DNA of 63,564 bases, filler included, from Reclinomonas americana ATCC 50394 (GCA_048213135.1; 17 parts of 17 records of this genome joined end to end with filler, not necessarily neighbours in it), one strand, 5' to 3'. Positions 41 through 58,600 are shown, counted from the whole stretch's first letter. The notes: generated by a model not told the origin, from the sequence alone. Numbers and translations are program-made.

Positions 41-1112
41 TCCCTGCCGAACGGTCGGTGCTGAGAAAAGAACGCAACTCCAAATCCTATCGCCTGAGTG
101 CGTACTTCCTGGGCAAGACGACCGCCGATCTGCCGATCCAGATTGTTGCGTGCCGGTGGACGGCGCCTCTCTGTTTCCCTCCTTCTCCTCTTCCCTCTCC
201 CTCTCCCTCTCCCTCTCCCTCTCCCTCTCCTTCCCTCTTCTACTCCCTTTCTCCCTTCTTGCTCATGCTGTCGCGTGCACAGGTGTATCCCTTCGTGTAC
301 GCCACCTGCATCAACTACATTGTTGGTCTTGGCGACTCACCACGTACGTCGCATGCATGCACAAAGCACGTCATTGTCTGCCCCTCACCTCGTATGTGCA
401 GGCATCTACTTCAAGTTCCTCGTGGTGGTGCTGATTTCGGCGCAAGTGTCCTACTCCATCGGCCTGGCGATTAGGTGCGTGCCCACCACTGAAATGGGCT
501 CTGCGAATCCACAAAGCTCACACCTCGTCGCCAAACACAGCACGGCGGTGATGGATCTGAAGAAGGCCATGACGTTTGCCACCATTCTTACTCTTGGTTT
601 CATGCTTCTCGGCGGGTTCGTGATGCCGTGAAGAGCAGACGTTTCTCTCTGTCGCCACTCACCATTTTGTTGGCGTGCCACAGTTTCTACATTGCTCCCG
701 ATCACATTCCCGTGTGGCTGCGGTGGATTCGGTGGGTCTCCTTCATCAATGTTGCGTTTTCTTGCCGGTGGTGCGAGCCTTCTTGTCCCCTCGTGAAGAC
801 TCATTGCTCCTTCACAGTACACATACTCGTCCGCCATCAAAACGGTCGTCGAGGGGCGCGACTTCCCGTGCACAAGTACGTCGTATTATATTCCTCACTC
901 TGCATACTTCGTACTCACGCGCCAGTCATTGGCTGTCATGTGCAGACGTCGCCGACTCCATCTACAATTCGTGCCCGGTGACTGGCGACAACATTCTTTC
1001 GCACGAAAATCTCACGCCTTTCAGCTACGGTATCGACATCCTGGTGCTCATCGGCTACGCCCTGTTCTACCGCGTGCTGGCCTACGTGTTCCTGCGTATC
1101 AAGGGCCGCTAA
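41..1112 (+). CDS. ABCG-family (White-like) transporter, C-terminal ABC2 membrane domain; multi-exon, 5' partial
   Basis: Spliced product ERSVLRKERNSKSYRLSAYFLGKT..LPIQIVYPFVY..FMLLGGFYIAPDHIPVWLRWIRWVSFINY..YRVLAYVFLRIKGR* matches the ABCG membrane-domain motifs; five GT-AG introns restore frame. Confidence 0.92.
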
Positions 1113-1192
1113 TCGGTCGACCCGCTGCTTCACACCCTCTAGAAACACATACAATAATAGAAACAACCTGCCTTGTTTTGAACATCCATCTT

Positions 1193-55600: not shown

Positions 55601-58600
55601 CGCAGCCGACGCACTTGTTGAGCCATCACCACTCTCCATACTCTGTCGATCAAATACGCTGCTGTTGACTGGGCTCGTCTCGCCCGACATGATGCTGCTG
55701 CTGAAGCTGGCTTCAGTCACCGGCCGGTTCTGTCCACTACCCTGCACGAAGCTGTCCATCAAGTCGTCACCGAGGAAGGAGGTGGCAATCGACAGGGGAT
55801 TTTGAGCAGGCGGCTGCTGGCTGGCACCACCACCACCACCGCCCCCAATATGACTGAGAGCTGGAGATTCGGCACTCAGTGGCGACTCGGTGACCGACGA
55901 AGAGGTGACGCTGGCACCACTTCCGCCGATAACAATGGCCTCAATGCGCGCATCCGACGCATGCTTCGCCTCCCGAGCCATTGCGCGCTGTTCACGAATG
56001 TGCTGCGCTAATGTCGACGACGCACTGGTACTGCTGGCCCGGCTAAACATGAGCAGCACAGTGAGATGATCTCCAACACCGCACAGCGTATGCGGTTGAG
56101 TGTCGAGACGCAACTCAGACGAGCTCGACTTGGACGCTGCGTGCGCACGACGGTCCTTGTTCTGTTCCTCGCGCATTTTCTGTGCCCGTGTCGAACGCTT
56201 GCCACTGGGTGTGACACTGGCGGTGCTCAGGTCGCCTGCACTGCCGGTGCTGCTCGCGGTGGAGCGATCTACCGCGCTACTCGTTTCCTTTTTCTTGGCC
56301 GACTTGGCGGCGGCCTTGTCACGGGCAGCCGCTGCGGCCGCCGCCGCGGTGCCGCGCCTCTTGCCGCCCACGACCACATTGAATGAATCGCCACCGCCAC
56401 CGCCACCGCCACCGCCAATCGGCACGTCATCGATATTAACAGGAGCCGAACGCGAAGATGACATGCCGTCGGCCATGGGAGGTGACGACGACCGTGACGC
56501 CGGCCCAGCCGACGACGACTGCGTGGGAGCGGTCGCAGTCGTGGCATGACCACCTGTCAGTGCGGCAGCTTGCGCCGTGGACATGGAGGGCACCGGCAGT
56601 GATGCGAGATGCGCGGCCAGAGCAGCATGCTGTTGCTGCAGCGCAGCATGTTGTTGCTGTTGTTGCTGCTGTTGCTGCTGCAGCAACTGCTGCGTGTACA
56701 TCGACGGTGACGGCATGTGCGGCGTCCCCTGCGTTGATATCATGGGCGCGTACTGCTGCATGCCCGGTCCGGTCATGTAATACTCGCCCGACGGCGACTG
56801 CGCCATGTACGGCATCCCTGGACCGCCGCCACCCCGATGCATGTCGTCAAATGCCGGCTGCGGCATCGGCGGGTACCCGCCAAAGCGCGGTGAGGAGCCT
56901 GTCCACGACGCCTGTGGTTGACGTGGCGAGCCATTCGGAGAAAAGAACTGCGCTTGTGCCATGGGATTTGGTGGAGGTCTCGAACGGCTGCTGCTGTTGC
57001 CACCGCCCCCGTTGGGTCCAATCGAGAACGCCAGCGCCAGTTCCTGATCGGCAAACTCCAGTGATCCACGCGGTGCAGGCATGCCGTACGCCGCTGCCGC
57101 TGCTGCCTGCTGCTGTTGCTGCTGTTGTTGCTGCTGTTGCTGTTGAGAGGGAGTCGGATAACCACCGTATGGTGACGGTGCTCCGTAGTATCCTGCGTTG
57201 GTCGCACCATAGTCCCCTGCGGAGGTGCCTGGCGAACCTGGAGGAGCTCCAAAGGCCGTCTGATACGGCGGTTGTGGTGCCGAGGGCAGTGGCGGCAGCG
57301 ATGGCAATGGCTGATGAGCGCCGTGTGCAAACTGGTGCTGCGGTGGTGTCGGTGGCGGCGGACCTTGCGCGCCACGCGAGCTCGGTGGACCACGTTGCTG
57401 TTGCTGCTGCTGCTGCTGTTGCAGCTGTTGCGAGTGTGCGTCGTGCGAAGAGCTGCGCCAGTGCTCGGCCTTCATCAGGCGGTCACGTTCTTCCTGCTTG
57501 TCTGCGTCCTGCGATTCCACGTAGCCCCACCACGACGGGTACACCACACCGGGCTTGTTGTGCGGCCCCGCCACTGCGAAGTGCGCTGGCGGCACACCAG
57601 CCGCATGGCCGCCTGCTGACACCGGCGTGGAGACCGAGTTGCCAGTCGAGGGTGGCGAGTCAGCGGTGCGACTGGTGGGTGGCGACAGTGGTCGCTTACC
57701 ACCGTCGTGCACAAAATCTACCGCGAGAGAGAGAGAGAGAGAGAATCAACAGTGAGCTCGTCGTCGCCTCGTGAGCCGAGTCTGTCACCAACAACACACA
57801 CACACGTACCGACACTGTTGCGGCGATCAGAGCCGGTCCGCCAGTTGGCCGCAGGCTTTGGATATCGAACGGGATTCCTGGTCGACAGCAATCAGCAACG
57901 AACACATGTGTGCGCACACACGCGCGCGCTGGAGACGCAACGATTCCGCGTCCGTGCCTGCCGCACCACCACCCGTCGCTGCGTCCATGGACGAGGCGCG
58001 AGCGTGAGCAGCGGCCACGCGTGCACGCTGCTTCCTCGCCTGCGAACATCACTCTCAGTTCACACACTAACTGCCCGCTCGACAACAACACACACCCACA
58101 CACACGCACCGCTGTCCGCCGCGCTGGATCCGCCGAGTTGAGATCGGCCAGCGACATGGCACTGTCGCCGCCATCGTCCTCCAAGTTGACATTCCACGCG
58201 TACGGCGCCTTGCTCGACGACGACGACGGTGGTAACCTGATGATGATCACATGAGCACTCCTCGCACACACACACACACACAGAGAGCGACAGAGACTGG
58301 GAGAAGGGACGCAACCGCGACGAGGACGCCGCAGACGACGAGCGAGGCGTGGTGCGACGCGTGAGTGTGTGAGCCATGGCCTCAGCCTCCTCCACATCAT
58401 CATCCCCTTCCACATCATGATCGAACGCTGCTCTCCCCTCCAGCTCCCCGGCTTCCTGCTGCGCGTGCTGCTGCTGCTGGTGATGATGATGATGATGATG
58501 AGCACCACCATTCTCCTCCTCCACCAGCGCCACTCGTCGTCTCTGCTGCTGCTGCTGTCGCTTTCGAGCCTGCGTAATGACATCATTGACAATCGCCTCG

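Follow-up and report, generated by a model that had tools for sequence, protein, structure and literature searches.

The 63,564-base stretch of Reclinomonas americana ATCC 50394 DNA analysed here (the window) carries, beside its ordinary donors, an abundant second class of 5' splice sites, GTTGCG(Y), which accounts for about one fifth to one quarter of the introns in the window (about 20–27%). The class has the form of the main donor, GTGCGY, plus one extra T after the GT, and we are highly confident that it is genuine. In our view the best explanation as a whole, to which we would give roughly an even chance, is a second donor class on ordinary GT-AG introns that is read through a lineage-specific adaptation; we infer the adaptation because canonical U1 is predicted to bind these sites less well than it binds unused GTs within exons. 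A full-text literature search on the motif, judged by titles and abstracts, found no description of such a splice-site class, although logos in figures are not searchable and prior publication is therefore possible.

Genes were anchored by Pfam matches of stop-to-stop open reading frames (ORFs), scanned as far as position 42 kb of the window, and introns were predicted with a Viterbi gene finder in which second-order coding scores of period three were combined with a learned acceptor matrix, a learned length distribution and two-strand segmentation. In a flat-donor run of four rounds any GT was accepted as a donor at a score of zero, while in a learned-donor run the donor model was trained on the flat-run predictions. 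An ORF-bridging test for donors was discarded, as it was passed by 59% of all GTs in this GC-rich DNA, and exon maps based on codon usage alone, together with an initial flat gene finder, were discarded as noisy and confused about strand.

GTTGCG was the commonest donor hexamer in the flat-donor run from the first round onwards, at 19 of 206, 18 of 228, 18 of 224 and 21 of 226 introns in the four rounds. The figure of 21 in 226 compares with a background of 77 copies (35 and 42 on the two strands) among 8456 GT sites, or 0.9% (binomial p = 5e-15). The learned-donor run gave 162 introns with a median length of 72 nucleotides (nt), of which 30 begin with GTTGCG, 14 with GTGCGT, 12 with GTGAGT, seven with GTGCGC and six with GTACGT. 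When the predictions were restricted to introns of 45–150 nt with a CTNAY motif 8–40 nt from the 3' end (n = 83), 22 were GTTGCG introns. A donor model with independent positions, built from the same introns, expects only 1.7 in this strict subset and 2.0 among all 162, so that the separate donor class proposed by the first-pass annotation stands. The branch motif was not used as such by the gene model, and 23 of the 30 GTTGCG introns (77%) carry it 8–40 nt from the 3' end, compared with 61% of GTNNGT introns and 16% of random windows.

The first-pass annotation had listed 26 GTTGCG donors, 11 on the plus strand and 15 on the minus strand, and the hexamer is present in the sequence at every one of them. 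Twenty-one are donors in the learned gene models and 15 had already been chosen in the flat run; four more (52473 on the plus strand and 30035, 37994 and 56114 on the minus strand) appear by eye to open typical introns of 61–74 nt with a CTNAY branch and a YAG acceptor. To these we add nine GTTGCG introns that had not been listed, with donors at 26619 and 49818 on the plus strand and at 4561, 37665, 38552, 40436, 55585, 57941 and 61458 on the minus strand. All 34 have GT and AG termini, and the class occurs on both strands, in no fewer than 14 genes.

Individual junctions were compared with homologues, with which seven GTTGCG junctions agree exactly, and the reading frame supports an eighth; at these sites removal of the intron restores a frame colinear with the homologues. 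Four of the exact junctions lie on the minus strand in the gene for katanin p80, where the comparison is with a transcript-like relative (P0003; 641 residues on a 2.2-kb contig), the sole match in the katanin search, which is 54% identical over the query exon and 36% to 79% identical in the tblastn pieces. Read-through of the 72-nt intron at 4294–4365 would produce a 24-residue insertion placed exactly between the two parts CIQ and TYRG, and the junction EGMR|VWEWEP across the 68-nt intron at 3739–3806, which was also called in the flat run, is colinear with P0003 and of the same length; both had been put forward in the first-pass annotation and both are borne out. In the con80 region the tblastn pieces of P0003 break around the 67-nt intron at 1521–1587, which has a CTCAT branch, and the spliced SGFQS|HVIAAL has the P0003 length. 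The newly called 62-nt intron at 4500–4561, also present in the flat run, likewise yields a product, ENEK-S-ARTMAGH, with the length of P0003.

The other three exact junctions belong to a gene of the CPSF100/INTS9 family on the plus strand, in which the GTTGCG introns at 26619–26677 (59 nt, newly called), 28536–28598 (63 nt) and 28959–29026 (68 nt) are gap-free against seven homologues. The three junctions confirmed in this gene, which had been called INTS9, are other ones than the putative F-L|KHL junction named in the first-pass annotation. We note that the gene (25400–29119) matches CPSF100_C (E = 4e-10) besides Lactamase_B_6 and RMMBL, so that it may be CPSF100/CPSF2 instead. The eighth junction is that of the 65-nt intron at 46831–46895 (plus strand) in COG3, for which a search for longer proteins gave two matches. 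Its two flanks align to the homologue P0001 in different frames, which are joined when the 65 nt are removed.

Sister variants of the motif had been proposed at four places, and two of these are retained. The 61-nt GTTGTG intron at 27623–27683 (plus strand), in the same CPSF100/INTS9-family gene, is gap-free against the seven homologues, and a 64-nt GTTACG intron at 62843–62906 (plus strand) is predicted in both runs; the GTTGTG sites at 25631 and 9951 are absent from the gene models. The first exon of the CPSF100/INTS9-family gene seems to end near 25630, at the former of these two GTTGTG sites, which would imply an intron crossing the gap at 25810–25909.

Most of the remaining GTTGCG introns were predicted in both the flat and the learned runs. 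On the plus strand these are at 751–817 (67 nt) in an ABCG-like gene, where the junction FIN|YT singled out by the first-pass annotation is consistent with the sequence, and at 17889–17965 (77 nt; CCTCACT branch, CAG acceptor), 18225–18289 (65 nt; no CTNAY in the scored window), 38901–38962 (62 nt, with a body rich in CA/CT repeats), 49596–49659 (64 nt) and 49818–49882 (65 nt, new). On the minus strand the EGF/teneurin-like gene contains introns at 20027–20106 (80 nt; ACTCACC branch), 20804–20871 (68 nt; GCTCACT) and 21681–21755 (75 nt; ACTGACT), together with one of 403 nt at 21111–21513 whose length is unusual for the window and whose 3' end is less certain. A secreted-protein gene at 36.5–38.7 kb contains those at 36863–36924 (62 nt), 37596–37665 (70 nt, new), 38170–38241 (72 nt) and 38470–38552 (83 nt, new), the last of which begins GTTGCGA and is the sole member with A at +7. 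Further minus-strand introns called in both runs are located at 34808–34871 (64 nt; GCTCATC branch), 40373–40436 (64 nt, new), 57878–57941 (64 nt, new) and 41628–41701 (74 nt), where the acceptor is GAAG and the 3' end correspondingly less certain. The learned run gave the intron at 58237–58315 (minus strand, 79 nt; GCTCATG branch), and it alone gave two new ones on the same strand, at 55517–55585 (69 nt) and, in a WD40 gene, at 61383–61458 (76 nt). A 138-nt intron at 145–282 (plus strand) in the ABCG-like gene is also predicted in the gene models; its branch is GCTCATG and its acceptor CAG, and in the upstream ORF the Pfam ABC2_membrane match stops at most three residues from the donor.

A few of the listed sites are less clear, and it is here that the possibility of mis-calls, in which transcripts would use other nearby GTs or the segments would be coding, has to be considered. 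The 72-nt intron at 56043–56114 (minus strand; TCTCACT branch, TTAG) is open and in frame, and the gene model read through it as exon. At 37931–37994 (minus strand, 64 nt; ACTCATT branch), in the secreted-protein gene, the donor is ambiguous with a GT 6 nt downstream; both are in frame, and the model took the latter (GTGGCC). The acceptors at 29962–30035 (minus strand, 74 nt; GCTCACC branch, T-run, GCAG) and 52473–52533 (plus strand, 61 nt; TCTAACT branch, ACAG) were, like that of 56043–56114, assigned by eye; for the first the gene model used the same acceptor with a donor 114 nt upstream, and for the second the segmentation placed the region on the minus strand. The claimed donor at 33271–33276 (plus strand) is putative at best, with no convincing acceptor within 260 nt, and the gene model instead begins a 261-nt intron at a GT 5 nt downstream. 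The junction TE|YL that the first-pass annotation named in CNOT11 is likewise putative. In addition, a GTTGCGT at 1499–1505 (minus strand) lies within a verified exon, where it encodes an AALRA stretch that aligns to P0003, so that the heptamer alone is insufficient to make a donor. As an account of the class, whose junctions are predicted, mis-calling is nevertheless scarcely credible: homologues match seven junctions exactly and the frame supports one more, a branch motif is found in 77% of the introns, and the sites were picked by a model blind to donor sequence.

Comparison of the donors indicates that the +4 to +7 positions of the class are displaced by exactly one base relative to the ordinary donors, as had been claimed, with the GCGY block moved one step into the intron and position +7 mirroring the ordinary +6. 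In the class +7 is T in 22, C in seven and A in one, while +6 of ordinary GTRNG donors is T in 39, C in nine, A in four and G in three; T is found at +7 in only ten of the 47 GTTGCG copies not called as donors. The shifted cores (n = 35) comprise GCGT (22), GCGC (7), GTGT (3) and one each of ACGC, GCGA and GAGT. The ordinary cores (n = 52) are more mixed, comprising GCGT (14), GAGT (12), GCGC (7), ACGT (6), GTGT (6) and the singletons ACGA, GAGC, GGGG, AAGA, GAGG, GTGA and GGGT. A GCGY core is therefore present in 29 of 35 shifted and 21 of 52 ordinary donors (Fisher p = 1.3e-4).

The exon side differs as well. The statement that the base at −1 is usually not G is upheld, with G in four of 30 GTTGCG donors and 42 of 55 ordinary donors (p = 1.7e-8). 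The same gap is present in the flat run (one of 21 versus 39 of 62, p = 1.9e-6, against a background of 29% G before exon GTs), and it was therefore not produced by the donor model. The class instead has T at −1 in 13 of 30 (seven of 55 in ordinary donors), C at −2 in 13 of 30 (ten of 55) and A at −3 in 15 of 30 (13 of 55). Intron phases are even in both classes (12/8/10 in the class and 18/23/14 in ordinary introns), so that codon position does not explain the difference at −1.

T at +3 is also found in donors of ordinary register. The donor of the lysyl-tRNA synthetase (LysRS) intron at 6665–6735 (plus strand) is GTTTGT, and its junction LAKW|HR is as in homologues; the 75-nt COG3 intron at 47706–47780 (plus strand) begins GTTGGT, is open and in frame, and matches the homologue when removed. 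By eye the LysRS introns are 60–110 nt long and homologue-supported, with GTGAGT, GTGCGC, GTCAGT or GTTTGT donors and a CTNAY-like branch about 20 nt before CAG. GTAAGT, the best match to canonical U1, has only five copies on both strands of the window, whereas there are 392 of GTGCG and 143 of GTGAGT.

Beyond the donor, the two classes are very similar. The median intron length is 68 nt in both, and 32 of the 34 GTTGCG introns are 59–83 nt long. Both have CTCAC or CTCAT branches and CAG acceptors, with a median branch distance of 16 nt in the class and 19.5 nt in ordinary introns. The branch consensus of the predicted introns is CTCAY, with C where most eukaryotes carry a purine (CTRAY), and the acceptor is almost always CAG. 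The sole difference between the bodies is a modest one, pyrimidines making up 64% of positions +8 to +22 in the class and 53% in ordinary introns (p = 0.01). From +8 to the 3' end G makes up 22% of the class bodies and 30% of the ordinary ones, and a two-base alternation of purines and pyrimidines follows the donor in the ordinary introns. The shared length, phase, CTCAY branch and CAG acceptor point to removal of the GTTGCG introns by the same major (U2-type) spliceosome, with only the reading of the 5' end differing, by one nucleotide.

Separate machinery resembling the minor spliceosome, with dedicated small nuclear RNAs (snRNAs) to read the 5' end, on the lines of the expanded U12-type system found in Physarum, would account for a 5' motif that is rigid over seven bases and lacks an exon-side consensus, as in U12-type introns, and large expansions of a second class, here one fifth of the introns, are known (bioRxiv 10.1101/2020.10.12.336362, excerpt). 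The class thus resembles U12-type introns, those of Physarum included, in its rigid motif, in having no requirement for an exon-side G and in its large share of the introns of one lineage. It differs from U12-type introns at both signals: its donors lack the RTATCCTT motif, the branch motif CCTTRAY is present in none of the 30 GTTGCG introns, and the 3' half is indistinguishable from that of ordinary introns in branch motif and distance, acceptor and length. Moreover, the motif is merely the main donor plus one base. We consider separate machinery very improbable. An Rfam scan of the window gave nothing at gathering scores and, at E ≤ 1, only weak microRNA- and small-RNA-like matches and no snRNA.

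In algae and other protists, introner elements account for short introns of uniform length, in large numbers and in unrelated genes, and the first-pass annotation had offered a wave of intron gain as an alternative. A recent wave from one mobile or templated, introner-like source carrying a GTTGCG donor would fit the many copies of one exact hexamer, the uniform lengths (59–83 nt in 32 of 34) and the uneven distribution among genes, with no GTTGCG intron in LysRS or in the large WD40 gene at 10292–16549 (plus strand) and up to five in others. The intron bodies, however, are no more alike than chance, with a mean pairwise local alignment score of 8.4 against 7.4 for shuffled bodies and 7.5 for ordinary introns, and repeats resembling target-site duplications are found in none of 29 introns at 4 nt and in none or one of 29 at 3 nt. 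Unlike introner elements, the class therefore shows neither a sequence family nor a duplication signature. Ordinary introns are equally long, and a common origin would in any case not explain how the donor is read. We therefore regard intron gain as improbable.

The question of reading was addressed by computing, with ViennaRNA duplexfold, the best duplex in any register between each donor and the canonical U1 5' end (as in PMC4856993, excerpt). The predicted median energies are −7.5 kcal/mol for ordinary GTNNGT donors, −1.3 kcal/mol for the GTTGCG class and −2.8 kcal/mol for 6639 unused exon GTs, 82% of which have a predicted duplex with canonical U1 at least as stable as the class median. 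When canonical U1 was used to tell donors from 250 decoys, the area under the curve (AUC) was 0.84 with ordinary donors and 0.23 with the class. When changes at four U1 positions were scanned, none served both classes well, the best minimum AUC being 0.68. For a hypothetical guide of 12 nt, in which an A is added and a G placed opposite C, the AUC is 0.97 with the class and 0.76 with ordinary donors.

Noncanonical U1 registers, shifted at +1 or bulged at +2/+3, have been described for human donors by Roca, Krainer and co-workers (PMC4856993, excerpt), and the first-pass annotation had suggested that such pairing is used routinely here. The weak predicted energies, the preference for GCGY and the loss of exon-side support argue against human-type shifted pairing to canonical U1, and with a predicted duplex of −1.3 kcal/mol, an AUC of 0.23 and a GCGY and not a GAGT core we do not sustain the suggestion in that form. 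In a broader form, U1C/LUC7-type proteins and factors bound to the downstream pyrimidines would offset the weak duplex of canonical U1 in the +1 shifted (or +2/+3 bulged) register. The displacement of the consensus by exactly one base is in keeping with such pairing. In the +1 shifted register G at +1 faces C9 and the base at −2 faces G11 (PMC4856993, excerpt), and this register, unlike a simple bulge register, predicts both that G is lost at −1 and that C becomes commoner at −2 (13 of 30 versus 10 of 55). The richness of the class in pyrimidines at +8 to +22 (64% versus 53%, p = 0.01) would also fit, and two classes of 5' splice site governed by LUC7 proteins, with exon-side or intron-side strength, are known (PMC11842720, excerpt). 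Set against these points are a median duplex weaker than that of most unused exon GTs, with an AUC of 0.23; the avoidance of the best-pairing core, GAGT (one of 35 versus 12 of 52 ordinary cores); the fact that T is commoner than A at −1 even though A would pair with U10; and the rarity of the human +2/+3 bulge register, which is given as 54–68 of 201,541 sites (PMC4856993, excerpt), far from one in five. We regard shifted canonical U1 with such help as possible but rather unlikely.

The weak canonical pairing and the restriction to GCGY would be better fitted by a variant U1 or U6, the second option offered by the first-pass annotation, than by human-type pairing; the site may be read by a U1 with an adapted 5' end, by a variant of U1 or with protein help. 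The most likely adaptation would be a U1, or an additional variant of it, with a 5' end that pairs without a break to GUUGCGU. U6 would then tolerate one looped-out U. We propose tentatively, at well under an even chance, that an adapted or additional U1 of this kind gives the major spliceosome a two-register 5' splice-site code.

Several points weigh against our interpretation. About one third of the 162 predicted introns look doubtful, with odd donors and no branch motif, so that the class shares are approximate; the sample is a single 63.5-kb window; and the junctions rest on our own gene models, with homologues in addition for eight of 34. Nearest-neighbour energies ignore pseudouridines and duplex-stabilizing U1C/LUC7-type proteins. 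C at +4 is also common in GC-rich algae with a canonical U1. A single adapted U1 leaves the below-background G and the favoured T at −1 (13 of 30) unexplained, the frequent T fitting neither shifted canonical U1 nor adapted U1, and the snRNA part of the favoured explanation is pure inference.

As in the human noncanonical registers (PMC4856993, excerpt), an extra nucleotide follows the GU, the conserved positions would pair one step further on and cleavage stays at the GU. The human cases are rare, however, all validated noncanonical registers together amounting to 1.5% of sites in the excerpt of PMC4856993, whereas here about 20–27% of introns are involved and one exact heptamer dominates; the human sites, moreover, form a stable alternative duplex with canonical U1 (same excerpt), while the GTTGCG sites are predicted to lack one. 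LUC7 proteins govern left- and right-handed classes of 5' splice site (PMC11842720, excerpt), which resemble ours in that exon-side strength is traded for intron-side strength, GTTGCG being an extreme intron-side type. They differ in sharing one register and one U1 (PMC11842720, excerpt), whereas in our class the register itself is shifted and next to no canonical pairing is predicted.

The window as a whole is intron-dense eukaryotic nuclear DNA with 57% G+C. It contains 16 assembly-gap linkers (2568–60632) of identical form, a 12-base all-frame stop motif between two runs of 44 N, most of which are flanked by GA or CA microsatellites; the contigs thus seem to have been broken at simple repeats and then joined with a fixed linker. 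Pfam matches identify the end of an ABCG-type transporter gene (1–1.1 kb, plus strand), katanin p80 (1.2–5.1 kb, minus), a class II LysRS (from 5.2 kb, plus), a very large WD40 gene (10.3–16.5 kb, plus), the EGF/teneurin-like gene (19.5–22.8 kb, minus), a beta-CASP gene with Lactamase_B_6, RMMBL and CPSF100_C matches (25.4–29.1 kb, plus) and COG3 (45.8–48.4 kb, plus). The best entry for the partial LysRS is from a jakobid and is 71% identical, with green algal entries at about 69%. Of two metagenome scans, the first found no relative and the second gave 80 LysRS loci, the best of them 76% identical and none closely related.

The WD40 gene at 10292–16549, in which no GTTGCG intron was called, contains several near-identical propeller modules, and its predicted introns are repeated from module to module with the same donors. 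Unusual donors predicted in it are GTGAATGAG at 13252, 14524 and 15797 and GTCACAAGA at 12057, 13341 and 14613. Opposite the EGF-like gene, at 22680–22777 (plus strand), seven unrelated microRNA-precursor models give weak overlapping matches far below gathering scores; this suggests a hairpin-forming stretch, and the cluster of matches is probably due to chance.

Recognition of the GURAGU-type donor by the U1 5' end ranks with the most conserved RNA–RNA recognitions in eukaryotes, and to our knowledge displaced registers are known only as rare human exceptions. For annotation the consequence is practical, since gene finders whose donor models treat positions independently would miss or misplace the GTTGCG introns, to the detriment of gene models in this genome. 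For the biology of splicing, the class offers a natural system in which to ask how the cleavage site is fixed when the U1 and U6 registers differ and whether snRNA 5' ends co-evolve with splice sites. A rewritten U1 end, if true, would represent natural co-evolution of U1 (and U6) with one fifth of all introns.

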